Below, one piece after another: positions 678 through 27,400 of a stretch of DNA of 64,000 nucleotides. Both the position numbers and the translations under genes were made by a program. The notes under the pieces were generated by a model. That model saw only the letters and a program-made list of their open reading frames with translations, had not been told where the DNA came from and searched no databases. The DNA is from Pseudomonas phage vB_PaeP_TUMS_P10, in sequence record OM782452.1; one strand, given 5' to 3'. Positions within the stretch are counted from its first letter, which is position 1; each line of letters begins with the position of its first letter.

Positions 678-890
678 CTACCCTTCGTAATCTGACATGA
701 TCTGGCATGCTTTCTGCCAGTGATGTATTCCCACATCAATGGAGTTAAGGCTTGCATACGATCCAGCAGTGGCTGTTTCTAAAGCCTTCAAAGATTGAAT
801 GCACGACTCCTTGGCATACTTACTACACAACATATTCTTGTGGAGGTGGGTAACCACAGCACCCACTAATTGATCATCGTTCATATGCAC
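678..890 (-). CDS. small early protein, K[YH]xKE-motif paralog family, array member 31/31 (most downstream)
   Basis: motif MLCSKYAKES; about 70 aa; same strand and spacing as the array. Confidence 0.45.
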   Translation of the reverse strand: MHMNDDQLVGAVVTHLHKNMLCSKYAKESCIQSLKALETATAGSYASLNSIDVGIHHWQKACQIMSDYEG

Positions 891-1081
891 CTCTCAAGGT
901 ACTCATCCCCCGCTTCAAAGTCCTCCATACTTACCCCATCAGACCGAAGATCACAGAAGATAGAGTAGAGTTCCCTGTAGGAATTCTCTGGTGGATATGA
1001 CTTCTCCTTCAGTAACTTATCAAGGAGTACCTTGCGGAAGGAGTAGTGGACTGCTCTATCCTGTATTTCTTCTGGTTTCAT
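881..1081 (-). CDS. small early protein, K[YH]xKE-motif family (array member)
   Basis: MKP N-terminus; VLLDKLLKEK variant of the motif. Confidence 0.5.
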   Translation of the reverse strand: MKPEEIQDRAVHYSFRKVLLDKLLKEKSYPPENSYRELYSIFCDLRSDGVSMEDFEAGDEYLERCI

Positions 1082-1090
1082 TCTTCACCC

Positions 1091-1303
1091 CTACACTATG
1101 GAATCAACCTCACCGACTACAATATCCCAGAGTGTGGAACTACCATAACCACCTACTCCATGCATCTGTAGTTCTCTCAGTAAGTTTGAGTACTCACGGA
1201 TGTGTGTACCTGCCTGAAAGAACAGTTGTTCCTTATCACACTTATTACTGAGTATGGCTGCGAACACACTCTTTCGTAGGATAATCCTCACTACTGTTTT
1301 CAT
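1091..1303 (-). CDS. small early protein, K[YH]xKE-motif family (array member)
   Basis: AILSNKCDKEQL degenerate motif; 70 aa. Confidence 0.45.
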   Translation of the reverse strand: MKTVVRIILRKSVFAAILSNKCDKEQLFFQAGTHIREYSNLLRELQMHGVGGYGSSTLWDIVVGEVDSIV

Positions 1304-1312
1304 ACTTTACCT

Positions 1313-1528
1313 CTACTGTATTGTTCTCACCTCCATCACTGCTTGCTCCCAGAGGACATACCATTGATAGTCAGTGAAGCCACGGGTCTTACGGATGAGT
1401 TCTGTAGTATCCAGGTACTTGTCTATCAACTTGTGTTCTTCGAAATAGAGTCCTTCCTTTCCATACTTGTGGCTGAGCAGTGCAGTGTAAGCACTGTTAT
1501 ATACAGCGGTTTTCAATTGATACTGCAT
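1313..1528 (-). CDS. small early protein, K[YH]xKE-motif family (array member)
   Basis: ALLSHKYGKEGL; C-terminal QWYVLWEQAV..TIQ. Confidence 0.6.
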   Translation of the reverse strand: MQYQLKTAVYNSAYTALLSHKYGKEGLYFEEHKLIDKYLDTTELIRKTRGFTDYQWYVLWEQAVMEVRTIQ

Positions 1529-1531
1529 ACG

Positions 1532-1741
1532 TCACCTTGTTACGTCCTTTTCCATTGCATGACCCCATAGGGTAAGCCACTCACCATCACCTAACACCTT
1601 GGCTTTGAGTTCATGATCCAGTTCTTTGTGTCTCTTGAGTACCTTATTCTTCTGTACCCACAGGCTCTCCTTACCGTACTTGCAGCTGAGGAGTGCGTTG
1701 TATGCAACGTTGCACATTAAGGATCTCTTACGCTCAACCAT
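1532..1741 (-). CDS. small early protein, K[YH]xKE-motif family (array member)
   Basis: ALLSCKYGKESL; EWLTLW C-terminal motif. Confidence 0.6.
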   Translation of the reverse strand: MVERKRSLMCNVAYNALLSCKYGKESLWVQKNKVLKRHKELDHELKAKVLGDGEWLTLWGHAMEKDVTR

Positions 1742-1747
1742 AGGAAG

Positions 1748-1963
1748 TCAACCTCTATCTGCTTCTACCCTGTCTGATATCTCATCCCACATGTCATTCC
1801 ATTCGATATTACTTAAACCACTTTCACGGAGGGATCTGAATATAATAGATTTCTGACGGAGTACATGATCAGTCTGGTTTAGGAGTCCTTCCTTACAGTA
1901 CTTGTCGCTGAGGATATACAGGTATACACAGTTACCCATCTCCCTTTCGAAGATCTTCTTCAT
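1748..1963 (-). CDS. small early protein, K[YH]xKE-motif family (array member)
   Basis: YILSDKYCKEGL; start refined to internal MKKIF whose ATG overlaps the upstream stop (ATGA at 1960-1963). Confidence 0.55.
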   Translation of the reverse strand: MKKIFEREMGNCVYLYILSDKYCKEGLLNQTDHVLRQKSIIFRSLRESGLSNIEWNDMWDEISDRVEADRG

Positions 1964-2154
1964 TCCATATGCCCTAGTGAATCCATCACCCGACTCCATC
2001 GATTACCCAATTTGCCATCCCCATTCAGGTAGATGATCATATCGGTGAACCTAGAGCCTAAGAGTTTCTCTTCTGCACCCAGTTTTTCCTTGCGGTACTT
2101 GTGTATGTGCAGTGCCATGTATGCGGTGTAATGGATTAGTTCTTCTGTGTCCAT
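1960..2154 (-). CDS. small early protein, K[YH]xKE-motif family (array member)
   Basis: ALHIHKYRKEKL. Confidence 0.55.
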   Translation of the reverse strand: MDTEELIHYTAYMALHIHKYRKEKLGAEEKLLGSRFTDMIIYLNGDGKLGNRWSRVMDSLGHME

Positions 2155-2158
2155 GTGT

Positions 2159-2392
2159 TCACCTCTTCACTTCATGGTCTATTGCAAGGTCCAGTAGTAA
2201 GCCCCATTCAAGGTCTCTCATACCACTGGCTTTTAGGGAATCGATAAGGTTCCTGTAATAAACCAGGGTATCGAAGTGTTGGACGAACTGGTGTTCCTTG
2301 ATGTACTTATCACTTAGCATGGTGTAGTACAGACTCTTGCACACACCTGGTTTGTATTCCTTGTTGATTTCAAACCGTTCTGATTGCTGCAT
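2159..2392 (-). CDS. small early protein, K[YH]xKE-motif family (array member)
   Basis: TMLSDKYIKEHQ; LEWGLLLDLA C-terminal segment. Confidence 0.55.
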   Translation of the reverse strand: MQQSERFEINKEYKPGVCKSLYYTMLSDKYIKEHQFVQHFDTLVYYRNLIDSLKASGMRDLEWGLLLDLAIDHEVKR

Positions 2393-2573
2393 CGTAAATC
2401 CCTCTCCATAAATCTGGATCGAATCTCCTGGCTTTTAATTCCAGAAGTCTATCCAGAACCTTATCTGCAAGGTCCGATCTCTGGGCGTATAGACGCTCCC
2501 TGACATACTTCTTCTGGAGTAACGATAGGTATGCACAAGAGTGTGCCAAGTCTAGTGTGCCGATGTTCTTCAT
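2370..2573 (-). CDS. small early protein, K[YH]xKE-motif family (array member)
   Basis: SLLQKKYVRERL; start refined to MKNIG (ATGA overlap at 2570-2573). Confidence 0.5.
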   Translation of the reverse strand: MKNIGTLDLAHSCAYLSLLQKKYVRERLYAQRSDLADKVLDRLLELKARRFDPDLWRGIYDAAIRTV

Positions 2574-2764
2574 ATGAGAGTCTCCACTGTTTCCCATACC
2601 TGGGACCACTGCAAGTAGGAAGTACCTTGCTCATTGAGTTGATCCATGACCTGGCTACCTTCCTTGAATAGCTTGTTGGCTACGGGTAGTTGTTCTTCCT
2701 TGTAGTACTTATCGCTTAGGACCAAGGTATATATACACTCGTAAGCAGCTGGTTCGGGTTTCAT
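2570..2764 (-). CDS. small early protein, K[YH]xKE-motif family (array member)
   Basis: MKP start (ATGA overlap 2761-2764); LVLSDKYYKEEQ; YLQWSQVWETV. Confidence 0.6.
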   Translation of the reverse strand: MKPEPAAYECIYTLVLSDKYYKEEQLPVANKLFKEGSQVMDQLNEQGTSYLQWSQVWETVETLI

Positions 2765-2955
2765 ACGGTTGCCTCTGCTGTTGACCACACCTTAACCCAG
2801 TCTATGTAGACAGAGCTGTGTGTACGGAGATCCCACTGAATACCCCAGGCTTTGTCAGTGTATTTCTGGGAAGCGGTTATTAGGTATTCCTTCTTGTACT
2901 TATTACCTAGTAGGTAGTTAAACACTACCTGGTGCGCAGCCTCTATCTCGGTCAT
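2761..2955 (-). CDS. small early protein, K[YH]xKE-motif family (array member)
   Basis: YLLGNKYKKEYL; DWVKVW; ATGA overlap at 2952-2955. Confidence 0.6.
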   Translation of the reverse strand: MTEIEAAHQVVFNYLLGNKYKKEYLITASQKYTDKAWGIQWDLRTHSSVYIDWVKVWSTAEATV

Positions 2956-3146
2956 ACGATCACCTCTATGTGGTCCCATACACAGGACCAGGCACCTACG
3001 GTCATGCCACTGAACTTGAGTGGGTATTCCAATTGGTATGCTGTTTCACGGTGGAGGTCACCTTTGTTTGTCTGCTTTTCTTTGTAGTACTTGGCACTCA
3101 GTAGATAAAGAAAGGCGACCTCATATGCGGTTGGATCTACTATCAT
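2952..3146 (-). CDS. small early protein, K[YH]xKE-motif family (array member)
   Basis: YLLSAKYYKEKQ; AWSCVW; ATGA overlap at 3143-3146. Confidence 0.6.
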   Translation of the reverse strand: MIVDPTAYEVAFLYLLSAKYYKEKQTNKGDLHRETAYQLEYPLKFSGMTVGAWSCVWDHIEVIV

Positions 3147-3328
3147 ACGGTGTTCTCCACATATTGGTGTGCGTTAGTCCATTCCTCTGCTTTTAGTTTC
3201 TGGTACCGAAGTAGTTGGCTTATCTTGTACTGGATATCAGAGATTCCATACGAGAGTTCCTCCTTCCAGTACTTGTCAGACAGAGACCGGAGGAACACAT
3301 ACTGTACTGCTCGTTTATCTAAAACCAT
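3143..3328 (-). CDS. small early protein, K[YH]xKE-motif family (array member)
   Basis: RSLSDKYWKEEL. Confidence 0.6.
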   Translation of the reverse strand: MVLDKRAVQYVFLRSLSDKYWKEELSYGISDIQYKISQLLRYQKLKAEEWTNAHQYVENTV

Positions 3329-3330
3329 GA

Positions 3331-3534
3331 TTACATCATCTCCATTACTACCTTACGTGCGGTTCTCCATTCATGGTGAGGGAGACCATTAACCCTGAGT
3401 CCCCAGGTGAGATCCCAGATCATTCCCCTCTGCCTACTGGCTTGAGTCTCCAGGCTCTCCTTGGTGTACTTGTCCATCAGCATCTTTGTGAATGTGGCGT
3501 AGACCACCTCATGAAATTCATATCCCGGTTTCAT
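3331..3534 (-). CDS. small early protein, K[YH]xKE-motif family (array member)
   Basis: MKP start (ATGA 3531-3534); KMLMDKYTKESL; HEWRTA. Confidence 0.6.
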   Translation of the reverse strand: MKPGYEFHEVVYATFTKMLMDKYTKESLETQASRQRGMIWDLTWGLRVNGLPHHEWRTARKVVMEMM

Positions 3535-3728
3535 ACTATTTGACTCGTGAGTTCCCACCCGGATTCGAAGTCCTTGCGTGTGACGCCCCGGCGGCTCAGG
3601 TTAGAGAAGATGGAATTGATATCTTGATACATCCACAGAGTCCCAGGCAGTCCTTCCTTGTGGGCTTTCCTGTAGAGAACCCGTTTAAACGCGTATCTGA
3701 GGAAGTCTTCTTCTAGTTCTGGTTTCAT
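3531..3728 (-). CDS. small early protein, K[YH]xKE-motif family (array member, KEGLP subtype)
   Basis: MKPELEED; RVLYRKAHKEGLP; ATGA 3725-3728. Confidence 0.6.
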   Translation of the reverse strand: MKPELEEDFLRYAFKRVLYRKAHKEGLPGTLWMYQDINSIFSNLSRRGVTRKDFESGWELTSQIV

Positions 3729-3916
3729 ACTATTTGTCCTACAAGGAACCGATCATCTTCTATACTCTTCTGCGAAAAGCCTTGGGCAATTAGCTCGAAG
3801 TAAGTGGCATTGGCTTCGCGGAACATACTCCCGGTACTGGGCAGTCCCTCTTTACGGGCTTTCCAGTATACGATTCGGTAAAACGTATACCTGCGGATCT
3901 CAGCTACTGGTTTCAT
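3725..3916 (-). CDS. small early protein, K[YH]xKE-motif family (array member, KEGLP subtype)
   Basis: MKPVAEI refined start (ATGA 3913-3916); RIVYWKARKEGLP. Confidence 0.6.
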   Translation of the reverse strand: MKPVAEIRRYTFYRIVYWKARKEGLPSTGSMFREANATYFELIAQGFSQKSIEDDRFLVGQIV

Positions 3917-4110
3917 ATCAATTGATCCACATGAGCATCCAACTTCTTCCACTCATCGTAAGATACCCCCTGCCTGCTTATCTTGCTGAAGTCGGCAGTC
4001 AGTTTCTCGAACATACGACCAGCACCGTAGAAATCTTCCTTAGTGTGCTTATTGTACAAGCGGATGTTATATAGGTGGCGGTACACCGTGCGTAACAATC
4101 TTGGTTTCAT
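3913..4110 (-). CDS. small early protein, K[YH]xKE-motif family (array member)
   Basis: MKPRLL; IRLYNKHTKEDF; DEWKKL. Confidence 0.6.
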   Translation of the reverse strand: MKPRLLRTVYRHLYNIRLYNKHTKEDFYGAGRMFEKLTADFSKISRQGVSYDEWKKLDAHVDQLI

Positions 4111-4112
4111 GC

Positions 4113-4313
4113 TTACACCTTTAGGTTAGTACAGGCATCTGCCCACAGGACTCCTTTATAGAGACCTACGTTGTCTGACAGACCACTGGGTACAATCCTG
4201 TATTCAATTAGGAGGTTCTCTTTCAGGTACTTGGCTTCACGCTTGATGGAGTACATATAGCGACAAGCCAATAGCAGGATGTGATCATTCAAGCTTTCGG
4301 AGGTATCCATCAT
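4113..4313 (-). CDS. small early protein, K[YH]xKE-motif family (array member)
   Basis: SIKREAKYLKENL; VLWADA; ATGA 4310-4313. Confidence 0.5.
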   Translation of the reverse strand: MMDTSESLNDHILLLACRYMYSIKREAKYLKENLLIEYRIVPSGLSDNVGLYKGVLWADACTNLKV

Positions 4314-4510
4314 ATGTAGCCCTTCCGCATTACTAGATCCTTTGCCTTATCCCATACCTGGAACCATTGGCCACCTGTCAGTACGTTCAAGGATTCGGGT
4401 GTCTCACTTACTTCAAGGAGAAAGGAGGGAACACCTTCCTTGATATACTTGTAGTTCAACACTAGGTTGAACATGTGCTGACAGGTTTCATGTAGCGCTT
4501 GTTTGTTCAT
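4310..4510 (-). CDS. small early protein, K[YH]xKE-motif family (array member)
   Basis: LVLNYKYIKEGV; GQWFQVWDKA. Confidence 0.55.
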   Translation of the reverse strand: MNKQALHETCQHMFNLVLNYKYIKEGVPSFLLEVSETPESLNVLTGGQWFQVWDKAKDLVMRKGYI

Positions 4511-4680
4511 ACCGTTCTCCTCAGTATTTCCCAGTACCCAGTCCAGTTGTTCTCTGCATAAGAGTTACTTTCTGGGTAAGGAACTCTTGATTTAATCCAG
4601 GGTAGATTTTCTTTTCGGCGTTTGGACTGGATCTCCTGAGCAAGGAGGTATCGAACTACTGCATCAGCATGATCGTTCAT
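4507..4680 (-). CDS. small early protein, degenerate member of the array (57 aa, below the ORF-track cutoff)
   Basis: hand translation MNDHADAVVRYLLAQEIQSKRRKENLPWIKSRVPYPESNSYAENNWTGYWEILRRTV; ATG at 4678-4680 and TGA at 4507-4509 both form ATGA overlaps with the neighbours. Confidence 0.35.
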   Translation of the reverse strand: MNDHADAVVRYLLAQEIQSKRRKENLPWIKSRVPYPESNSYAENNWTGYWEILRRTV

Positions 4681-4856
4681 ACCAGTGCCTCCACTTTGTC
4701 ACGTAGAGCATTCCACTCATCCATGCCCAGGTTATGGTCATAAGGGTACGGTGGAGCCTGCCACCCCGTCATGAAATGTTCCTTGAAGTACTTAGTCCGG
4801 AGAATATTACTGTGCATGTACTTGGCTACATCGGTTTCACTCTTGCTATAGGTCAT
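4677..4856 (-). CDS. small early protein, K[YH]xKE-motif family (59 aa, below the ORF-track cutoff)
   Basis: hand translation MTYSKSETDVAKYMHSNILRTKYFKEHFMTGWQAPPYPYDHNLGMDEWNALRDKVEALV; ATGA overlaps at both ends. Confidence 0.5.
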   Translation of the reverse strand: MTYSKSETDVAKYMHSNILRTKYFKEHFMTGWQAPPYPYDHNLGMDEWNALRDKVEALV

Positions 4857-5026
4857 ACCATTTCCTTTGCTAGTTGATCCACCTCCTCCCAGTCATCATC
4901 AGTTAGATCGGGGCCAGGGATATATGAGAATTTGGTGGGGCGGTACATCTTCTCCTTCATGTGCTTGAGGTCCATGAAGTAACGGAATGCGGAGACAAGC
5001 ATTAGCTCTTTCTGCTCAGGGGTCAT
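4853..5026 (-). CDS. small early protein, K[YH]xKE-motif family (array member)
   Basis: start refined to MTPEQ (ATGA 5023-5026); FMDLKHMKEKMY; DDWEEV. Confidence 0.5.
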   Translation of the reverse strand: MTPEQKELMLVSAFRYFMDLKHMKEKMYRPTKFSYIPGPDLTDDDWEEVDQLAKEMV

Positions 5027-5235
5027 GTCCGTACCTCTGCGCTTTGCCATGCGGTTACCCACTCATCTGCTGTTACCTGTGAATGGGTTGGGTACTCTGG
5101 TTCTTTGAGTGGTATCCGCTCCTTAAAGGTCTTGGATTCCAAAAGGATTTGGTACTTAAGGGAGGTGGCTACATGGAGTAGGTATTCAGAGTAAGATTTA
5201 TCTCCCGGCACTATAGTGGTAGGTATGCTCATCAT
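5023..5235 (-). CDS. small early protein, divergent member of the array
   Basis: start refined to MMSIP (ATGA 5232-5235); TSLKYQILLESKTFKERI (motif split by an insertion); DEWVTAW. Confidence 0.45.
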   Translation of the reverse strand: MMSIPTTIVPGDKSYSEYLLHVATSLKYQILLESKTFKERIPLKEPEYPTHSQVTADEWVTAWQSAEVRT

Positions 5236-5420
5236 ACGATTGTCCTCGCTATGGCCATGTGACGATCCCAAGTTTTCTTATCAAAGTTGGGCCAGATCCT
5301 TTGAGATACCTTTCTGCTAAGGTAGCTGGCCTTCCCATTGAATCTTTCCCTGGTGTACTTAGAAGACAGGATTCTTGTGAAGGCACTATTGAGTAGTACA
5401 GGATCTAGTTCTGAATTCAT
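5232..5420 (-). CDS. small early protein, K[YH]xKE-motif family (array member)
   Basis: RILSSKYTRERF; ATGA 5417-5420. Confidence 0.55.
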   Translation of the reverse strand: MNSELDPVLLNSAFTRILSSKYTRERFNGKASYLSRKVSQRIWPNFDKKTWDRHMAIARTIV

Positions 5421-5605
5421 ACGATGGTTTCCAACTTGCTGTACAATTCAACCCACGGGAAGTTGCCAGTTAACCCTGCCTTGAGGAACAACTGGACACT
5501 CCTGTTGCGAAGACCTAATGCTTTAGTCCGGTTGGATTCTTTAAAGTACTTACGCATCAACAAACTACTGAATGCATATGTGTAGTGGTGTTGCGTTGCT
5601 TCCAT
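5417..5605 (-). CDS. small early protein, K[YH]xKE-motif family (array member)
   Basis: SLLMRKYFKESN; FPWVEL..TIV. Confidence 0.55.
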   Translation of the reverse strand: MEATQHHYTYAFSSLLMRKYFKESNRTKALGLRNRSVQLFLKAGLTGNFPWVELYSKLETIV

Positions 5606-5608
5606 GGT

Positions 5609-5800
5609 TTAGTTCCTCAAATGTTTATATGCCTCCTTCCACAGGGATTCAGAGGCATGCATCGACAGTACCTGGACATATTCAGAGGTGTAGTCGTTAG
5701 GCTCTGCGTAGCCAAACTCCTTGAGGTGCTTCTTCTCCAACACTCTCCCATAGCAGTAACCAACTGCTGCTTTTATTTGGTACAGCCAAATGCCGCTCAT
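5609..5800 (-). CDS. small early protein, K[YH]xKE-motif family (array member)
   Basis: RVLEKKHLKEFG; ATGA 5797-5800. Confidence 0.55.
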   Translation of the reverse strand: MSGIWLYQIKAAVGYCYGRVLEKKHLKEFGYAEPNDYTSEYVQVLSMHASESLWKEAYKHLRN

Positions 5801-5991
5801 GTTGATAGATCCCCCATGACTTCACGTAGATCGTAGTGGTTGAGTGTGAAGTTGTGACACTTCTCTAGCGACACCTGAAAACCAGATATGCTGTACCACT
5901 CTTCCCAGTTCCTTTCCTTGGTAGCCTTGCGACTGAGCAAGGTCAGGTAGGCATAGTGCATCAGAACTCCTCTTGGAATGGGGTCAGACAT
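5797..5991 (-). CDS. small early protein, K[YH]xKE-motif family (array member)
   Basis: start refined to MSDPIP; TLLSRKATKERNWEEW. Confidence 0.5.
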   Translation of the reverse strand: MSDPIPRGVLMHYAYLTLLSRKATKERNWEEWYSISGFQVSLEKCHNFTLNHYDLREVMGDLST

Positions 5992-6226
5992 TGAGTCCCT
6001 CCTTGTCCAATTCCCGCAACAGTCTGATGGACTGGTTCCAATCTCCATGGAAGAAGTTGTTGGTTATTATCTGCTCTTGCCTGACAGCTTCCTGTTGGTA
6101 GGCGTCACGGCCATAGGCCCGACGTTCCTTCCTGTGCTTATGCGCAAGAACCTCTGTGTAGAGTAAGCGGAAACCAGCCATCCTCAAGTACAGAGATCTC
6201 TCTTCAGTTCTTGTTAAAGTAGGCAC
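5984..6226 (-). CDS. small early protein, K[YH]xKE-motif family (array member)
   Basis: EVLAHKHRKERR; GDWNQS; the true start may be the internal MAGFR. Confidence 0.5.
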   Translation of the reverse strand: MPTLTRTEERSLYLRMAGFRLLYTEVLAHKHRKERRAYGRDAYQQEAVRQEQIITNNFFHGDWNQSIRLLRELDKEGLNV

Positions 6227-6422
6227 TTTCTAAACTCCTGAATTTCATGTAGCGGATACCGTACTTCTGCATCAAAGCCGATAGCAGATAGCTCGCCTTG
6301 TCACGGAGGTCTTCAACTACACTGTATCGCCTCTCCTTGCTGTACTTCCGAGCCAGTACACCAATGTTCTTGCGGGTACAGAAGTAAGGTGCGAGACAGT
6401 TGATCAGTTCATCGTCAGTCAT
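6204..6422 (-). CDS. small early protein, K[YH]xKE-motif family (array member)
   Basis: GVLARKYSKERR; ATGA 6419-6422. Confidence 0.5.
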   Translation of the reverse strand: MTDDELINCLAPYFCTRKNIGVLARKYSKERRYSVVEDLRDKASYLLSALMQKYGIRYMKFRSLESAYFNKN

Positions 6423-6613
6423 GCTGAAGTCACGTCCAGTGAGTAGATGTAGTTCACTATCTCATACCTGGGACACAAAGGAGCCAGGGCATCCAGGTCG
6501 GTAATGAACTTATCGTAGAGCTTGTTTGTTAGTAATGTGTGGCTTTCTTTGGACAGCTTGTTGATATGAATGATCCGGTACATCAGTTCAGCTGATTTCT
6601 CAGTACTTAACAT
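6419..6613 (-). CDS. small early protein, K[YH]xKE-motif family (array member)
   Basis: IIHINKLSKESH; the track start is GTG, ATG refined to 6613. Confidence 0.45.
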   Translation of the reverse strand: MLSTEKSAELMYRIIHINKLSKESHTLLTNKLYDKFITDLDALAPLCPRYEIVNYIYSLDVTSA

Positions 6614-6818
6614 AGCCACGTTCCCTCGCTGTTACATACAGTACTGTGGCAGCGTCACCGACCAAACCACCATACATGTTCTGGTACCGTTCCACTGAGG
6701 GGCAGTCAGCTAAAGGGGGTAGACGTAACCCCTCCTTAAAATACTTCCGCCTCCTGTACCTGAAGTGAACGAACTCAATCAGGTCTTCTTCAGGGATTGT
6801 CAGGTTAACGATTGACAT
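6600..6818 (-). CDS. small early protein, K[YH]xKE-motif family; first gene of the array operon
   Basis: FRYRRRKYFKEGL; the only array gene with a strong AAGGAG Shine-Dalgarno (revcomp of 6824-6830) rather than a coupled ATGA start. Confidence 0.55.
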   Translation of the reverse strand: MSIVNLTIPEEDLIEFVHFRYRRRKYFKEGLRLPPLADCPSVERYQNMYGGLVGDAATVLYVTARERGYVKY

Positions 6819-6886
6819 GGGTGTATCTCCTTGGTTTGGTCTGTGTGTTATGCTAGGTTCAACCTATACACAACCGAGGTTCTATC
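6819..6886. promoter_or_regulatory. divergent intergenic region between the early array (leftward) and the late operon (rightward); should hold promoters for both
   Basis: 68-bp AT-richer gap flanked by oppositely oriented operon-first genes, each with its own RBS. Confidence 0.4.
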
Positions 6887-7615
6887 ATGACTCAAGCTGC
6901 TGTACCTGCACAGCCGATCACTCAGTTGACGGCAGACCAATTCAAGAAGTCCTTGCCGGAGAAGCTCCGTGGGTCCATCACCCCGGAGATCATGAATACT
7001 CTGAATGGGATGCTCGCCGATCCCGACATGTGCGAAGCCTACCGGGACAACCTGCTGGGCTACACGCATGTGATGAACGAAGGCAAGTTCAAGCTGGATG
7101 GGTACATCCATGCGGTGAAGTACGTGAGCCACAAGCTCATGGGCTGCACAAACATTGACGCCTTCAGCCGGACTTTCCCTGACAAGATCCAGCGGTGGAC
7201 GATGCAGAACTATGCATCGAAAGACATTGCCAGCTACGTCAGTGCGTACAACAAGTCGAAGCTGGTGAACCTGATTCTGGAACAGACGCTGATTCCGACT
7301 CACGTTCTGAATGCTGATATCTACCAGAAGGCCATCAACGTCCAGGCTAAACTGATGATGACTGCCACTTCGGAGAAGGTTCGGTGTGAAGCGGCCAACA
7401 GTCTGCTGACCCACCTGAAGGCACCGGAGAAGACCAAGCTACAGATCGATGTGTCTGCTGGTACTTCGTCTCTGCTCCAGGATCTCCGAGCCAACGTTGC
7501 AGCACTGGCAGAGATGGAGCAACGGATGATCTCCAGCAACCAGATCACTGCACGGGAAGCAGCAGAACGTAAGCTTGTGTTCGAACAAGCTGAGGATGCG
7601 GAGATCATTCAATGA
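6887..7615 (+). CDS. first late-operon protein; putative terminase small subunit, called from its position immediately upstream of TerL
   Basis: 242 aa; stop overlaps the TerL start (ATGA); no diagnostic motif recognised. Confidence 0.35.
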   Translation: MTQAAVPAQPITQLTADQFKKSLPEKLRGSITPEIMNTLNGMLADPDMCEAYRDNLLGYTHVMNEGKFKLDGYIHAVKYVSHKLMGCTNIDAFSRTFPDKIQRWTMQNYASKDIASYVSAYNKSKLVNLILEQTLIPTHVLNADIYQKAINVQAKLMMTATSEKVRCEAANSLLTHLKAPEKTKLQIDVSAGTSSLLQDLRANVAALAEMEQRMISSNQITAREAAERKLVFEQAEDAEIIQ

Positions 7616-19933: not shown

Positions 19934-21495
19934 TGCCGCCTATCACTTGGCGTAACATTGGAACCACGGTAAGCCCCGGCAGTGCTCGTTCGCTGACTGC
20001 CGGGACTACTGGTGTCCAATCTGCATTGGCTTCGCTCGGCGATATCATCAAGCAACAGCAAGAGATGGCCGTGGCGAATGCTGGTGTACAGCGTGAAGCC
20101 AACACGCAAAACTACCTGGACCAGGTTGCTTCGGCTGACCTGAGCCAACTCCAAGATCCTGATTTCGTCGCTGGTTTGGCGGGGCAACGTGATGCCATGG
20201 GCATGCGTTTGGACCGTGCCGCAACCCGTGATGCGATCCTCAACCGCAGGCAAGCCCTGCAAAAGGACACTGTTGCTCAACAGGCATTCGCCGATCAGCA
20301 GGCTGAAGTAGATCAGCGGGGAATCGTAGATGAACTACGGACCCTGGCTGCTCAAGGCCGTGGCCGTGATGTAGATGCCATCCTGGCTGAACGTCAGTTG
20401 ATCAACGAGGGCGAGATCCGTAAGGAACTGGCGGGTGTCCAAGACAACCTGATGCAACGTCAGTACCGGGCAGCCGGTGAACAACGTGCTCAGGCTGCTG
20501 CGGACCGTGCTGCTGAAGCTCACCAGTTGTCCATGACTGCTAGTCGGGAGAACTTGGCGTACCAGCGTGATCTGCGTCAGGACGCAGCACGCGAACGGAA
20601 TGACAACAAGCTGGCCGACAGTGCAGTAATGGAGATCTCCAACCAGTTCCGGGAAAGCCGGGAAACGGCCAATGCTCTGTTGCGGGATATCGGCAAAGAG
20701 CAGGGTCTTCCTACTGACGACACTGGTTTGCCGGATGTATCCCGTATGGATCCGGACCAAGAAGCCAGCTACCGAGAGGCAGTTCAGTCCTCTGGTTTGT
20801 CGGCCAACTTGTCGGCGACGAACGAGAAGCAAGCCTTGGTCAAGACCCTACGTGAGTCTGGTGCTTCGCCGTCTGCTATTCAGCGAGCCACGAAGCAACT
20901 GGACATCATGCAAGGCATGGATGCACTGGCACCTGAAGATGCTGTAAAGGCGGAGAACCAGGTGACTGCGGTCAATGCTGAGTTGGATCGAATCCAGAAG
21001 CAGATGACCCGCAACTACGAGACCGAGGTTGCTCGTAACCCGTTCATCGAACCGAGCAAGACTCCGCTGGAAGACGTTACGAAGACGGTGGAGAAACTGG
21101 GCAAAGCTGGTATGCCTGAATCGGAACGGCGTCTGGTTGCGGATACTCTGGTCGAATGGTCCACCAACGGTATGACTACCGATGGCGGTCAAAAGATCGT
21201 AGTTCCTTCCCAGTTGATCGCCGCTGCTGCTGCATCTACCGATGCCGATTCCTGGATCCGGAACGATGCGAAGAGTTACCTCAAGAACCTACAAAGTCTC
21301 TTGGGTAACAAGGGTATGGAGCAAATGGCCAAGGATGCAGATTCCGTGCGGTCGGACTTCCTCAAGGAGATGACCAAACTGGAAAATGACAAACTGGGTA
21401 ATGCCTATAGAGTAATCAACTCGGCAAAGGCCAAAAAGGGTGTTAGTATCAACCCCAATGACACCGTTGATCGATTGCTCAAAAGGAATTTCTGA
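19933..21495 (+). CDS. coiled-coil virion protein
   Basis: 520 aa; TAATG and TGATG start/stop overlaps with its neighbours. Confidence 0.5.
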   Translation: MPPITWRNIGTTVSPGSARSLTAGTTGVQSALASLGDIIKQQQEMAVANAGVQREANTQNYLDQVASADLSQLQDPDFVAGLAGQRDAMGMRLDRAATRDAILNRRQALQKDTVAQQAFADQQAEVDQRGIVDELRTLAAQGRGRDVDAILAERQLINEGEIRKELAGVQDNLMQRQYRAAGEQRAQAAADRAAEAHQLSMTASRENLAYQRDLRQDAARERNDNKLADSAVMEISNQFRESRETANALLRDIGKEQGLPTDDTGLPDVSRMDPDQEASYREAVQSSGLSANLSATNEKQALVKTLRESGASPSAIQRATKQLDIMQGMDALAPEDAVKAENQVTAVNAELDRIQKQMTRNYETEVARNPFIEPSKTPLEDVTKTVEKLGKAGMPESERRLVADTLVEWSTNGMTTDGGQKIVVPSQLIAAAAASTDADSWIRNDAKSYLKNLQSLLGNKGMEQMAKDADSVRSDFLKEMTKLENDKLGNAYRVINSAKAKKGVSINPNDTVDRLLKRNF

Positions 21496-24400
21496 TGGCT
21501 GACTTTGATCTCGATTCTTTCCTGGATGCGAGATTGGACGCGGAGGCTGGTACTGCACCAGCCTTCGATCCTTCTGCATTCGCTGATTTTGGCAACACCT
21601 TCCCCATGAAGGGAACCCAAAAGCAGTTCAACATCTACGAGATGGCAGAACAGAAGCGCCGGAACATCGAAGAGTCCTTGGTAGGCAAGCTGGGCATCAC
21701 TCCCGGTGCTACCGGTACTGGCCCAATCAACCTGGCTGCTTCCCTGGCTTCGGGTACTTCCCGTGTAGCCGGTCAACTGGTCAACCTGCCCCTGAACTTC
21801 GCTGCTCAGATGGGTCAAGCTGGTGTTTCCGAAGAAGCCATTCAGGCTTACAACCGGGAGATCACTGGTAACCCGCTGGAAGGTGACGATGCCATCCTGA
21901 ACCAGATCGCTGCTGGTGAAGACGGTGTTCAGCAAACCATGCGTGATCGCCTGATTGGTGTTCAGGGTCTTCGTGACGCCGGTAAGGCAGTACAGGACTT
22001 CTTCGACATCTCTTCGATTGTCGATACCACTGACCGTGACGCCATGAGTCGCGACATTGCTGAGCGTACCCAACAGGGTGTAGCTCTGCTGCGTGAATCT
22101 GGTGACCAACTGGAACGTGGTCAGATCCTGGATGCTCTGCTGTCCGGTGCTGCTGGTGCAACTCAGACCGTAGCCGGTGCTGTTGCTGGCACTGCCACCA
22201 ACCCCTCTGCTGTCACTGAGTACACCGTAGAGAACGCGCCTCAACTGGCAGCTGCTGCTGTGTCGGCACCTCTGGGTGTGGCCACCAACGTGGGCTACGC
22301 CGCTGATGAACTTCGTGAAGGCTATCGCGAATACGCTGAAGCCAACGATGGTCAACTGCCGGACCAAGAAGATCGCCTGAAGATGGGTGCCTTCGCTGCT
22401 TCCCTGGCAATGGCTGAACAAGTCGGCGACCTGAGCATGCTGCGGGGTATCCGTGGTGAGGCTGGTTTGCTCCGCTCGACTCTTTCCTCCAGTGCCCGTG
22501 AAGGTGTAACCGAAGGCTATCAAACCTACGGTGAAGCCCAGGTTCGACTGGACGATGCGAGCATCGAAGAGATCGTAGAAGGTGCAGCCATCGGTGCAGC
22601 TGTCGGTGGTTCCCTGAACATCGCTGGCCGTGCTGTACGTGGTGCATCCGGTGCCAAGTCCAAGGCTGAACAAGCCATCACTGACCGGGAAGCTGTAGCC
22701 ACTGCCCGTGAGACTGGTGACATTGCTGACCTGACCAACATCGAGTCGGAGAACTACAACCCGGCTGGTGCGGTGAGTGTGCTGCATGAGCAAGTCCTGA
22801 AGAACGACACTCCCGAAGTGCGTGAATCTGTCATTGCCCAGGCTGACACCATCGAACAGGAACTGGCTAAGCAGATCTCGGATATCGAAAGTGTCCAGGC
22901 TCTGGCCAGTGAAGAAGGTGTTGCTCGTCTGGTTGCTGCACGGGAACAACGTGAAGCTCAACTGGAACAAGCCACCCCGGAAGAGCGTACTCAGCTGGAA
23001 GCTCAGATCGAGTCGATCCGTAACCTGGAAGAAGAGGCTGCTGCCTACACTCCCGAACTGCGTGCTCAGGATGATGCAGAACTCAAGGATCTGAACCAAC
23101 GTCTGAAGGCTACTCGTGAAGCGATCCAGCGTCTGCATACCGATGCTGCGCCTACTGCTCCCGAGGTAGAAGAACTGGTTGCCCAGGCACCTACTTCTCC
23201 GGAAGCTGCTGAGCGTGTGATCACCCTGACCATGACCAACCCGGACAGTCTGAGCAACGAGCAGATTGCTTCCATAGTTTCGGACGAGTCCAATGGCTTG
23301 TCCCCGGAATACCGCACTGCACTCCGCAGCTTCGCTCAAGCCAAGGAAGCCATGGATGAACTGAAGGGTTTGTCCGGTGTTCGTACCGATATCGAAGTCG
23401 GTGGTGATGGTTTCAAGGGCATCCCTCAATACCGCAATGCTGTGCGTATGGCCCTGTCCAACGGGAACATCGAAGCTGCTACTGCTCAGGTAGACCAGCT
23501 GCGTGCCTTCGCAGATACCCGCCTGTCCAAGTTCGCTGCAATCAGCGATGCCTTCGACAAGGTGCAGGGTACCCAGGACTTCATCAACATCATCCCGAAC
23601 CAGGAAACTGGTGTGTGGGAAGTTGCTCCTGAAGGCATGACTCCCCGTCAGGTTCAGTCGGCCAAAGGGCTGCGTGTATTCGCCGGTTCTCAGAAGCTGC
23701 GTGATGCTGTAGCCATGGAAGCTACTGCCCTGGCACGTACTGCTGAATCCCTGCAAGCACTGATCAACGCCGGTCCTCTGACCAACGCTGTACAGGTTGC
23801 TCAAGAGCAAACCATTGCCCAGGAACAAGAAGTTGCTCCTGTAGCTGAAGAGGTGACCCCGGTAGCAGAGCCTACCGCTCAGGTATCCGAAGAGGCTGTT
23901 GCCCAGGAAGCTGAGACGGTCCAGGCGGAACCTGTTCCCGAGGTCGAAACTGGTGAACTGACTGCAATCCGTGAGGGTGCAGAAGTTCGTGGTAAGCCGC
24001 TGGCAAGCCAGGACTATCAGGACACCAACCTTGTTGGTGCGTTCTTCCAGCAATCGCCGGCCAAGCAAGAAGGTGACACCAAGAAGCCGCTGGCTTCGGT
24101 GAAGGACTTCGCTACTGCTGTCCGTACTGGTTCTGCCAAGCTGGCTGAGTTCGCTGGTGTTGAGTCCTTCACTGGTCAGCAACAGTCTGCCCTGAAGAAC
24201 TTCATGGGCTTCCAGCGTATGGCCAAGCCTCTGGTTGAAGCCAACCTGAAACAGTACGTCTCCAAGTCTGGCGATGCCAGCCGTTATCGTTTCCGGGACT
24301 ATGCTCAGTTCCTGGTGAACGCTGATGGCTCCCTTGATGAGAACGTCAGCACTGCTATCGCCTACGCTGCCTACGATTGGATCAACGATGCAGCTTCCAA

Positions 24401-27400
24401 CCTGGTGAACTCCGATGCAGGCATCAATGCCATTCTCGGTAAAGACGTCAGTGCCGAAGTATCTCCGGCTGCTTACGCTGCTCTGGCCACTGTTGGTGTT
24501 CGTCAGGCAACTGCTGCTGCTCAGCTGGGTGCCAAGGTACGAGAAGTCCTTGGTTTGGAAGTACTCCCCAATGCTCCTGTGAACGAGCAAGCCCGTCTCG
24601 AAGCATCCCTGGGTGAGCATGCTCTGCACCTGCTGGTGAAGAGTGGTGCTGCCAAGATCACCGCTATCAGTGATGCTCAGCTGAAGAACCTGATGGGTTC
24701 CCAGGAGAAGCCCAACGCGAAAGTCCAGCACTACTTCCTGACTCCGGTCAGCGAACGTGTGGACGGCAAGCTCCAGGCTGGTCCGCTGGCTCGCCGTGTG
24801 CGTGAAGCTACCATGGGAAGCCAGTCGATCCTGAACAAGCTGTTCGGTACGACTCCTGCCATGATCGAGCCGAGTTTCGAACCCATCGACTTCAAGCAGC
24901 GTAACGCCAAGCGTACTCAGCAGCCGATTAGTTCGGAGCAAGCACGCATCTTGGATAAGGCCGCGAAGCAAGCTCACACTCTGCGTCCTGAGATGTGGCA
25001 GGTATGGGGTAATCTCAGCCCTGAAGCTCTGGCTACCATTGCTGGTGCTGCCGATCTGGAAGGAACCAAGGTTCACAAGGCAAACCGTGCCGGTCTGCAA
25101 GCCAAGTCGGATGGACTGGTTCGCCAGATTCAGAACTTCGGTGACTTCTTCAACCGAATCAACGAAGTGTCCGATCTGGGTACTGAACAGCCTCTGTACT
25201 TCGACCGCTCTGTATGGAAGCCTCAGCGTGTTGGTTTGACCAGCAACCTGATCAACCCGCAGACCTCGAAGATCCACCGTCACATGCTGAAGATGGAAGG
25301 CTGGGAATCCGAGGTCAAACTCGATTCGAAAGCTGACCTGGACAACTTCAAGCTTCGCGTACTGGAGTCCTTCGGCAAGAAGACTGAAGCCACCAACACC
25401 GACAAGGTACTGGCCAAGTACGATGCTACTGTGAACACCCCGGCAATTCAGGGTGGTGTAGCTGCACTGGCTGAGATCCTCCGTGGTGATGCAAGCGATA
25501 CGGTCGCCAACGAATCGGCGATTCTGGCTGCTGTTGCTGAAGCTGGTGAGAACTTCTTCAGCCTGGATGGTTTGGTAGCTCTGGCTCAAGAGAAGATCGC
25601 CCGTGAAGACGGTGCTGCTTCCTTCAAGACCACTCTGCTGGGTGAAGTGGACGGCGTAACCAACGGTCCGATGCTGTCGCTGCTCATGTCCGGTGCCAAG
25701 GGTTTCGAAACCCTGAACCAGGGTGGCTTCTTTAGCCAGACCGATGGTTTCCAGCAGTTCAACGACTTCCACGCTGAAGCCGGTAACCTGGACCTGTACG
25801 AAGGCACCATCAAAGCTGTCCTGGATATCCTGGGCAACAACCCGCTGCTGTCCGCTATCGAAGCCATCACTGGTGAACTGAGCACGGATGACGGCAACGT
25901 ATCGTCCAAGGGCCGTAAGGTAATCAAGCAGCCCCTGACCGCAATGATGTTTGGTTCGAACACCAAGACTGCGGTAGACGGTATGGCTGATGGCTTCATC
26001 GAAACCATCTACAGCAAGATCGAAGACGCTGCCAATGCCAATGATCTGGACTCTCTGCGTAAGACCATCAATGCTGTAAACCAGCTGATGATCGGCACCA
26101 ATGCACAGAAGTGGCCGACCGACATGGGCTTCGAAGCTGCCCTGGATACCACCTTTGATGCCCGTCAGGTAGCTGCTCTGAAGAACAGCTTCTACCAACT
26201 GCTGGGCAAGAAAGTGGAAGAGGCACTGAACGACACTTATGCTGAGTTCATCAGCCGTCGTGATGTCATCAACAAGACCGCCAACATGGCGTTCCAGATG
26301 TACGAAGCTGCCTTCCAAGCCAAGCGTGAGCAGATGCTGAAGACTGCTGACCTGCCTCGTGGCAAGGATGGCCAGCCGTACACCGACTTGACCCGTGAGC
26401 AAATCGAGCAGATCCGCAAGGAACTGAAGCCGATGGAACCGATCCTGCACACTGCTTTCTCGAAAGCCAGTGGTGAACTGGATGCCGGTATGCTCATGGC
26501 CAAGACCCGTCGTGAACTCAACGACACTCCGCTGTACCGCAGTGAAGTTCACTTCGCTGAACCGCTGGAGTTCCTGGATAGCGACGGTCGCAAACGTGCG
26601 GTCAACTCGATGAAAGCCAGTGGCATGACCACGGTCAACGAAGGTCCGGGTGTAGCTCCGTTCATCACGGCTACCCACGCACTGGACTCCTTCATCAGCC
26701 ACAATGCCTTGGATGGTGCCAGCGTCCTGAACATCCACGATGCTCACGGTACTGGTTTGTCCGACATGGCAGAAGCTGGCCGCCGTCTGAACGAAGCTAC
26801 CTTCAAGGCTATGCTGGGTTACTCGGCTGCAAGCGAGATGGTTGACACCTTCGAACGTACTCTGGCTGGCTTCAACAATCTGATGACCGATCCCGAAGCT
26901 GCTGCTGTCATGGCTCCCATGATGCAGAAGTACCTGGAAAGCCAGAAGGCTACTGTTGGCCAACAGCTGGAAGCGATCCGCCGTGTGGCTGAAGCCGCTG
27001 ACACCGACAAGCTCACCATGCTGAGCGAGATGGCTGCCGTCGGCCAGTACGCTACCGAAGGTGGTAGCTACCTGGTAACCGATGCTGACCGCAAGGCTGC
27101 TCAGGATGCCCTGAAACAGGTAGGCAAGTTCAACGAGGAAGCCGAGATCTGGGCTGAGAACGTTGATGCCAATCTGGAAGTCATGGCTTCGGAAGCCAAG
27201 GCAGGTAAGGCCAAGCCTCTGTCTTCGGATTCCGTCCAGACTCTGGCTCCGGCTACCAGCCTGAACACCATGGACCGCGTTATCCGCGAATCCAATGGCC
27301 AGCTGCGGGAAGACCTCCAGCAGGTAGCTTCGGTCATGGAAAACCAGAACATTCCTCTGGCTTCGGCCAAAGAAGTTCTTCCGGAAGACCGTGCAGCTGC

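Follow-up and report, generated by a model that had tools for sequence, protein, structure and literature searches.

Pseudomonas phage vB_PaeP_TUMS_P10 (hereafter P10; sequence record OM782452.1) carries, at positions 678-6818 on the minus strand of the 64,000-nucleotide stretch analysed here (the window), an unbroken chain of open reading frames (ORFs) in which 31 small genes follow one another head to tail, with a coding share of 99.4%. A first-pass annotation, made from the letters of this DNA alone, had read the region as 31 paralogous genes in tandem within one minus-strand operon, and the analysis described below bears that reading out. The gene sizes it gave (57-83 amino acids), however, become 57-80 amino acids once starts are refined by ribosome-binding sites and ATGA stop/start overlaps and in-frame upstream extensions are trimmed. 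Adjacent genes meet in 4-nt ATGA overlaps at 18 of the 30 junctions, the others lying between a 23-nt overlap and a 9-nt gap; judged by this layout, the array is evidently one 6.1-kb polycistronic, translationally coupled operon. The family accounts for 31 of ~113 annotated features, that is, about a quarter of the genes and 8% of the DNA of a 74-kb phage. Compositionally, the array has a GC content of 45.8% (54% at third codon positions), against 52-56% (58-73% at third positions) in the other long genes of the window. The genes are listed below, numbered from the high-coordinate end (g01) to the low end (g31), each with the residues around its shared motif; LOO is the E-value of the gene in a leave-one-out search with a hidden Markov model (HMM), and hhalign the leave-one-out profile-profile probability, with the number of aligned columns where given.

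6600-6818, minus: g01, 72 aa, RKYFKE; divergent, helix 1 and motif only; LOO 0.05; hhalign 83%, 20 columns; phrog_37873
6419-6613, minus: g02, 64 aa, NKLSKE; divergent; LOO 0.042; hhalign 48%, 32 columns
6204-6422, minus: g03, 72 aa, RKYSKE; C-terminal half divergent; LOO 1.5e-4; hhalign 83%, 30 columns
5984-6226, minus: g04, 80 aa, GTG start, HKHRKE; LOO 7.8e-7; hhalign 70%
5797-5991, minus: g05, 64 aa, RKATKE; LOO 2.4e-6; start set at AGGAGG-N6-ATG
5609-5800, minus: g06, 63 aa, KKHLKE; LOO 2.9e-5; hhalign 86%, 55 columns
5417-5605, minus: g07, 62 aa, RKYFKE; LOO 8.5e-8; hhalign 96%
5232-5420, minus: g08, 62 aa, SKYTRE; LOO 4.8e-9; hhalign 97.6%
5023-5235, minus: g09, 70 aa, SKTFKE; LOO 3.3e-5; hhalign 92%
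4853-5026, minus: g10, 57 aa, LKHMKE; LOO 1.5e-4; hhalign 96%
4677-4856, minus: g11, 59 aa, TKYFKE; mosaic (recombinant) copy; LOO 2.6e-8
4507-4680, minus: g12, 57 aa, SKRRKE; LOO 0.25; hhalign with orthologs 86%, 52 columns
4310-4510, minus: g13, 66 aa, YKYIKE; LOO 1.6e-7; hhalign 97.7%
4113-4313, minus: g14, 66 aa, AKYLKE; C-terminal half divergent; LOO 3.6e-4; hhalign 66%, 27 columns
3913-4110, minus: g15, 65 aa, MKP start, NKHTKE; phrog_11216 subgroup; LOO 1.5e-12
3725-3916, minus: g16, 63 aa, MKP start, WKARKEGLP; LOO 3.9e-5; 41% identity with g17
3531-3728, minus: g17, 65 aa, MKP start, RKAHKEGLP; LOO 4e-13; phrog_11216 at E=9e-32
3331-3534, minus: g18, 67 aa, MKP start, DKYTKE; LOO 8.3e-11; no ortholog in phage LUZ7
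3143-3328, minus: g19, 61 aa, DKYWKE; LOO 2.8e-10; no ortholog in LUZ7
2952-3146, minus: g20, 64 aa, AKYYKE; LOO 8.9e-13
2761-2955, minus: g21, 64 aa, NKYKKE; LOO 2.7e-13
2570-2764, minus: g22, 64 aa, MKP start, DKYYKE; LOO 6.3e-16; structure modelled
2370-2573, minus: g23, 67 aa, KKYVRE; LOO 2.9e-12
2159-2392, minus: g24, 77 aa, DKYIKE; LOO 4.4e-8; hhalign 98.6%
1960-2154, minus: g25, 64 aa, HKYRKE; LOO 1.5e-6
1748-1963, minus: g26, 71 aa, DKYCKE; LOO 5e-14
1532-1741, minus: g27, 69 aa, CKYGKE; LOO 1.3e-11
1313-1528, minus: g28, 71 aa, HKYGKE; LOO 5.2e-15; no ortholog in LUZ7
1091-1303, minus: g29, 70 aa, NKCDKE; LOO 5.1e-7; present in P10 and phage Ka3, absent from KPP21, PA152 and LUZ7
881-1081, minus: g30, 66 aa, MKP start, DKLLKE; LOO 2.2e-9
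678-884, minus: g31, 68 aa, SKYAKE; LOO 7.7e-5; final gene; no ortholog in LUZ7

What unites these genes is a short motif, K-x-x-[K/R]-E, which is present in all 31 (29 as KxxKE, two as KxxRE) and which, with the reading frames checked, falls in a single column of their MAFFT alignment. The stricter form K[YH]xKE, which the first-pass annotation had ascribed to every copy, is found in 23 (Y in 19, H in four). At the nucleotide level, the recurring pattern that had been noticed is real as well: AAR-N6-ARR-GAR occurs 41 times in the window versus 8.4 +/- 3.3 times in shuffled sequences, with 34 of the matches on the minus strand within the array and seven across the other 57 kb. Codon choice within the motif varies, with the glutamate written as GAA in 18 genes and GAG in 13, the tyrosine as TAC in 14 and TAT in five, and the second lysine as AAG in 23 and AAA in six, while the first lysine is biased toward AAG (28 of 31). 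Since synonymous codons thus differ inside the motif, we reject a DNA-level role for it, and constraint therefore acts on the protein. A second proposed signature, the C-terminal [DE]W..[LV]W.....[IV], holds for its first W (24 of 31, with F in three more) but fades thereafter, the second W being present in 10 genes and the terminal V in ~14. Part of this apparent protein motif exists because translational-coupling signals overlap the final codons, such that in many genes the codons of the conserved E-x-x-x-V-stop are at once a GAGG-type ribosome-binding site and a GT-ATG-A overlap with the next gene (for example at 4677-4683 and 2952-2958). The MKP starts credited to "many" copies number ~6-7.

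Homology among the copies extends beyond the motif. Leave-one-out HMMs recovered 28 of the 31 members at E<1e-3, and the other three (g01, g02, and g12), at E-values of 0.04-0.25, nonetheless scored above all 697 background ORFs of the window. In leave-one-out profile-profile comparisons that included orthologs from related phages, 25 members aligned over their full length with probabilities of 86-98.7%, whereas for g01-g05 and g14 the alignment was limited to helix 1 (see below) and the motif. Mean pairwise amino-acid identity among the copies is 19.7%, with a maximum of 41%, and Tandem Repeats Finder detected no ~200-bp DNA repeat over the array; on these two grounds we reject an assembly artefact or a recent duplication, in agreement with the earlier description of an old, diversifying family. 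Neighbouring copies are slightly more alike than distant ones (22.5% vs 19.7% identity, permutation p=0.0004), and this excess is therefore a trace of tandem duplication. Evolutionarily, then, the sequences point firmly to an old multigene family built by repeated tandem duplication and shaped by birth-and-death evolution.

Structurally, the members are predicted to be soluble proteins of ~65 amino acids that fold as up-down-up three-helix bundles, where a two-helix fold had been expected in the first-pass annotation. The AlphaFold2 (AF2) model of g22 is a three-helix bundle with helices at residues 5-22, 26-45, and 50-63 (pLDDT 95.3, pTM 0.79), and that of g01, the most divergent copy, also has three helices, the first confident and the other two less so (pLDDT 77). 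Column statistics across the family show hydrophobic positions recurring with heptad-like spacing in all three helices, and no transmembrane-like segment occurs in any of the 31 members. Among polar positions, K21, K24, and E25 (profile numbering) alone are invariant; they lie where helix 1 ends and turns into helix 2. From the topology of the bundle, this K/K/E pole should adjoin the C-terminal end of helix 3, with E25 at a helix N-cap position, and a structural clasp would be as plausible a role for it as a common docking site. Outside the pole, almost every surface column varies nearly at random across the paralogs (entropy ~3 bits), and the net charge of the members runs from -5 to +7, with isoelectric points of 4.4-10.6. 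A Foldseek search of the PDB returned nothing significant (best E=1.6, to MITD1); the nearest shapes, below significance, were three-helix bundles of a generic kind, MIT domains and designed mini-binders among them. MIT domains, the protein A Z-domain with its affibody derivatives, and de novo mini-binders resemble the family in size (55-65 amino acids) and in up-down-up topology, but at this Foldseek E-value, and with no Pfam domain, we reject its assignment to MIT or to another named three-helix-bundle domain.

By nucleotide identity over the array region, P10 evidently belongs to the genus Luzseptimavirus of the N4-like Schitoviridae, as do Pseudomonas phages Ka3, Ka4, KPP21, PA152, AM.P2, PJNP053, and LUZ7. 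Positions 678-6818 are 96.6% identical with Ka3 and Ka4, ~95% with KPP21, PA152, AM.P2, and PJNP053 (94.8% in the last), and 78.6% with LUZ7 over half of the length. As far as current data reach, the family appears confined to this genus. Sequence searches of Pfam, PADLOC, and the PDB gave no match, and a search of BFVD retrieved Luzseptimavirus paralogs only. When 1.84 billion representative proteins, in a library without names, were searched with the family profile, 31 matches emerged at E<=1e-3, and their sequences resemble the Luzseptimavirus copies; in a separate search of 5.8 billion proteins, all 11 named matches were to Luzseptimavirus phages. When the gene next to the array, which resembles N4 gp69, was used as bait against IMG/VR and JGI metagenomes, it recovered KPP21, LUZ7, and 4-6 contigs at 49-69% identity that lack family members, although the contig at 69% stops 91 nt into the array side and is too short to show any. 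In PHROGs v4, 16 members match phrog_6063 and seven match phrog_11216 (E<1e-3), but the collection as a whole splits the array into 13 families, 11 of them singletons, all annotated as of "unknown function", in line with the first-pass statement that the family was not a recognised one. The sister genus Litunavirus has no family member among the five genes that PEV2 carries at the same site, and since none of these is homologous we reject them as ancestors of the family.

Within the genus, the array is conserved in order and variable in content. A profile scan counted 31 copies in P10 and Ka3, 30 in KPP21 and PA152, and 28 in LUZ7, so the copy-number variation that had been put forward for checking does exist. 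KPP21 and PA152 lack g29; LUZ7 has no orthologs of g18, g19, g28, g29, or g31 and holds extra copies beside g16/g17 and g21. The remaining copies stand in the same order in LUZ7 and the KPP21-like phages, as one-to-one orthologs: 26 collinear pairs join P10 to LUZ7 (38-90% amino-acid identity), and 30-31 pairs join it to KPP21, PA152, and Ka3. Substitution rates were estimated by the Nei-Gojobori method on stop-to-stop ORFs that include short upstream stretches, and the values are accordingly approximate. Across the 26 pairs with LUZ7, dN/dS is 0.14-0.71 (pooled 0.32), 10-20 times the values of the adjacent genes (0.028 for the terminase, 0.016 for the gp69-like gene), and between close strains it is 0.21-0.24. 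Pooled dS against LUZ7 is 0.71 for the array, about twice that of the terminase (0.36) and the gp69-like gene (0.34). On these substitution patterns, each copy is individually under purifying selection and yet fast-evolving. Divergence is unevenly spread over the array. Among phages that are 95-97% identical, some copies are the same in sequence, but g2, g11, g19-g22, and g31 carry 15-42 substitutions each, and single copies are 78-86% identical between strains where the rest of the array is mostly at 96-100%. The mosaic copy g11, for instance, shares 79-80% amino-acid identity with its Ka3 and KPP21 orthologs, against 96-100% for most copies. We reject positive selection as the cause, with no ortholog pair above 1 in gene-wide dN/dS and the divergent copies of close strains looking like recombination blocks. 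Taken as a whole, the array has been kept stable and in order, at 28-31 diverged copies, which appear to be lost, gained, or swapped singly by recombination.

The position of the array in the physical genome differs from its position in the record, and the following features of its surroundings bear on this:

1-631, minus: direct terminal repeat, collapsed in the assembly; outside the family; base 1 of LUZ7 corresponds to window position 631
207-182, minus: terminator-like hairpin inside the terminal repeat
216-485, minus: homolog of LUZ7 gp01, inside the terminal repeat
6819-6886: 68-nt divergent intergenic region between the gp69-like gene (plus) and g01 (minus); holds the g01 ribosome-binding site AGGAG
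6854-6866: hairpin TAGGT-TGA-ACCTA (5-bp stem, 3-nt loop) in the 68-nt leader of g01
6887-7615, plus: N4 gp69-like gene, divergent neighbour of g01

In the linear genome of LUZ7, the array corresponds to gp87-gp115 (68,698-74,345, Watson strand), which lie past the terminase (N4 gp68-like) and gp69-like genes and directly precede the right 660-bp direct terminal repeat. With base 1 of LUZ7 falling at the repeat boundary, window position 631, the P10 window is evidently a permuted assembly, with a physical end of the genome lying between the array and the gp01 homolog; the two adjoin in the record because the assembly is permuted and the terminal repeat collapsed. The end of g31 lies 47 nt from the repeat, and the array forms the final stretch of unique sequence ahead of the right terminal repeat. 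As in its relatives, it occupies the slot between the gp69-like and terminase genes and that repeat, on the strand opposite the late genes. The first-pass annotation had placed it at the early end of the genome, the reverse of what we find. In the N4 model, transcription by the virion RNA polymerase (vRNAP) draws in the leading portion of the genome, and the remainder needs middle transcription (PMC3715699, introduction); by analogy with N4, the array would be the last DNA to enter the cell. The window also contains a 3403-aa ORF (21495-31706, plus) of the size of an N4-type vRNAP, the LUZ7 counterpart of which has 3,398 aa. Antisense to this gene runs a 2048-aa ORF (21405-27551, minus), one of several long antisense ORFs in the GC-richer part of the window, which are most likely shadow ORFs arising from codon composition.

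Signals for transcription are scarce within the array. There is no excess of sigma-70-like promoters or of terminators in it, no hairpin with a stem of at least 6 bp inside it, and no GC-rich hairpin of that stem length just upstream. We took an N4-type early promoter to be a vRNAP hairpin with a stem of at least 4 bp, a 3-nt loop, and a G start 13-14 nt downstream. The hairpin of the gp01 homolog, GGCC-TTC-GGCC (551-541, minus), has G residues 13-14 nt downstream, as do LUZ7 early promoters, whereas the hairpin in the g01 leader fits neither the LUZ7 early type, having no G 13-14 nt downstream, nor the GC-rich middle type. The sole element in the array with the stem of the gp01 hairpin, GGCC-TAT-GGCC at 6109-6119 (minus, within g04), has another loop and no G at +13/14, and it is probably there by chance. 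Published transcription of LUZ7 covers the array region with mid-infection transcripts, 90% of the early phage transcripts coming from gp01 and Drc (PMC9163698). With no promoter-type signal of its own and with these LUZ7 data, the array is probably expressed via long middle transcripts from upstream. Given its right-end location and the lack of an early-type hairpin upstream of g01, we reject its membership in the N4-type early (host-takeover) gene class.

Considering these results together, we hold with high confidence to their descriptive part, namely that the genes form one family in one operon, on a soluble, predicted three-helix scaffold with a fixed pole and with diversified surfaces and charge, gained, lost, or swapped in single units, selected copy by copy, and restricted to one genus. 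For function, our preferred reading is a tentative one: the array may be a middle-phase repertoire of small soluble binding modules on a single scaffold that act on host proteins, possibly those of defence. All copies would keep the same hydrophobic core and the K-[Y/H]-x-K-E pole while the rest of the surface and the net charge have diverged, and each module would be selected for its own partner, most plausibly a host protein and maybe a defence component acting after DNA entry. The pole may serve as a structural clasp, its glutamate capping the N-terminus of helix 2 and its lysines sitting beside the C-terminal end of helix 3; alternatively, it may be a docking site common to all copies. A more specific version, in which ~30 mini-binders would each have their own host or defence protein as target and the pole would dock one shared effector (such as a protease or a phage enzyme) to which all targets are delivered, we regard as doubtful. 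If it were true, the array would be without precedent among small tailed phages as a large, ancient, and stably inherited multigene family of the immune-evasion type, of the order of those in African swine fever virus or poxviruses.

Several observations weigh against a repertoire directed at the host. The family has no similarity to a characterised anti-defence or host-takeover protein in Pfam, PADLOC, the PDB, or BFVD, with no library dedicated to anti-defence proteins searched. No ortholog pair has a gene-wide dN/dS above 1, and in the divergent copies non-synonymous changes increase in step with synonymous ones, a sign that diverged alleles were brought in by recombination and not of an arms race. 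Confinement to one genus and an order kept across a dS of ~0.7 are unlike the patchy, fast-turnover spread that is usual for anti-defence genes, and middle expression from DNA that enters last, on the N4 analogy, rules out a first-line role. The structural models, furthermore, were computed from an alignment of only the 31 paralogs, and the ATGA coupling at 18 of 30 junctions equally suits equimolar subunits of one assembly.

Other functions can be weighed against the same data. One is a part in phage DNA replication or in the processing or packaging of the genome, with the invariant lysines contacting nucleic acid or a replication or packaging protein. The authors of the LUZ7 transcriptome suggested a replication-related role for the cluster themselves, from co-expression alone, on the strength of the mid-infection transcripts that span it (PMC9163698), and the proximity of the array to the terminase genes and the genome terminus, as well as the two invariant lysines, would suit such a role. 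A charge range of -5 to +7 with isoelectric points down to 4.4, however, is unfit for generic nucleic-acid binding; Litunavirus replicates and packages its DNA without the family, with five unrelated genes in the slot; copy number differs among viable isolates; and dN/dS is 10-20 times that of neighbouring core genes, all of which makes this account unlikely. Somewhat more improbable, in our estimation, is that the 31 proteins join into a single hetero-oligomer (such as a shell, filament, or scaffold), kept equimolar by translational coupling, with the pole as their common interface. The 18 ATGA overlaps without internal promoters or terminators, the pole conserved in all copies, and the copy order kept between species are as such an assembly would have them, but viable relatives miss, add, or swap copies (g29 is absent from KPP21 and PA152, and LUZ7 is minus five and plus two), and the surfaces outside the pole are unconserved among the paralogs. 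Virion mass spectrometry published in 2010 covered particles of LIT1 and PEV2, which are phages without the array (PMC3715699), and thus says nothing against the presence of family proteins in the virion.

Taken literally, the interpretation offered in the first-pass annotation would be a gene accordion for host takeover or anti-defence, expressed early from the end of the genome that leads, whose copy number flexes under selection; this now looks very improbable. The adjacency of the array to gp01 and its early hairpin promoter would suit it but holds only in the permuted assembly, with the physical genome end in between, and the slight copy-number differences among isolates would also fit it. 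Against this stand the description of the region only among mid-infection transcripts of LUZ7, the lack of an early-type hairpin upstream, copies at ~20% identity with no DNA-level repeat, an order conserved between LUZ7 and the KPP21-like phages, and dN/dS below 1 in all pairs. We give as little weight to the idea that the region acts as DNA or RNA, be it a rightward-transcribed filler that helps pull in the genome, a buffer of packaging length, or neutral junk. Dependence of distal genome entry on middle transcription in N4 (PMC3715699, introduction), the low GC content (45.8% vs 52-56% elsewhere), and a sister genus that does without the array are compatible with it, but none of the 31 reading frames is broken in any genome examined, every ortholog pair has a dN/dS below 1 while synonymous sites vary inside the motif, ribosome-binding sites and ATGA coupling are kept, and AF2 confidence is high. 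Deletions made with Cas12a in PJNP053 removed "putative non-functional genes" in blocks A-D, for which coordinates are absent from the paper text; blocks A, B, and C could each be deleted, with lower burst size, whereas deletion of D, B+C, or A+B+C gave no plaques (PMC11269290).

The locus itself has been known for some time. In 2010, gp87-gp115 of LUZ7 were published as a hallmark cluster of 29 small genes, ORFans [quoted passage not shown] (PMC3715699); similar descriptions of the cluster as ORFans or small genes followed (PMC7845610, PMC9163698), and the AM.P2 paper used it as a feature that separates Luzseptimavirus from Litunavirus (PMC7845610). None of these three papers mentions paralogy of the cluster genes. 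The cluster of LUZ7, which is also that of KPP21, AM.P2, PA152, PJNP053, Ka3, and Ka4, has the same locus, position, and orthologous order as the array of P10, and differs in copy number (28 recognisable copies in LUZ7, 31 in P10); the genes of P10, in addition, are here shown to be one paralogous family with a common motif and a predicted three-helix fold. Some of the genes had previously been brought together by automated clustering, as phrog_6063 and phrog_11216, and the profile-profile tests now unite the whole array. It appears, then, that the locus was known as a set of unexplained small genes, and that the union of the "29 ORFans" into a single family with a fold and a motif is new, as is the evidence for an ancient, ordered, individually selected multigene family that makes up about a quarter of the genes.

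Comparison with other systems places the family more precisely. In Litunavirus, the right-end module (gp86-gp90 of PEV2 and LIT1) occupies the same slot on the same strand and is annotated as middle/late in transcription, but it consists of five unrelated genes of 70-216 amino acids (69784-71837 in PEV2), one with three transmembrane segments; unrelated genes in this slot imply that the right end is a variable accessory slot in the subfamily. Gene accordions, such as those of poxvirus K3L and of the T4 tifA region in response to toxIN, are recent, near-identical, and unstable dosage amplifications. They are alike in being tandem multiplications of a small accessory gene in a virus, but the P10 copies are ~20% identical, show no DNA repeat, and keep their order across species, and in place of instability we find 30-31 copies as one-to-one orthologs in fixed order in four phages that are 95-97% identical. 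Closer parallels are the MGF110, MGF360, and MGF505 families of African swine fever virus (ASFV) and the terminal families of poxviruses, in which diverged tandem paralogs lie near a genome terminus and copies are gained or lost between strains. The array resembles these in its diverged tandem paralogs near the terminus, in the gain and loss of single copies between lineages, and in per-copy constraint, here purifying selection. They differ in belonging to eukaryotic viruses of 150-200 kb and in having larger proteins with documented roles in host range and immune evasion, whereas the P10 family consists of 7-kDa proteins that fill about a quarter of the genes of a 74-kb tailed phage. Multigene families that are both large and diverged are, to our knowledge, a typical feature of big DNA viruses of eukaryotes, and phages of ~70 kb very seldom have them.

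In a group of P. aeruginosa phages that is used therapeutically, roughly one gene in four has stood in annotations for 15 years as an ORFan unrelated to the others, and their union turns 31 unknowns into one problem. The family offers a defined fold, an invariant motif, and natural variants by gain, loss, and swapping of copies for comparison. If the copies prove to be dispensable, their 6 kb would be safe cargo space for engineering these phages; if they are target-specific binders, they would amount to a ready-made collection of small inhibitors directed at Pseudomonas proteins, and could serve as a model of how a phage diversifies a single scaffold.

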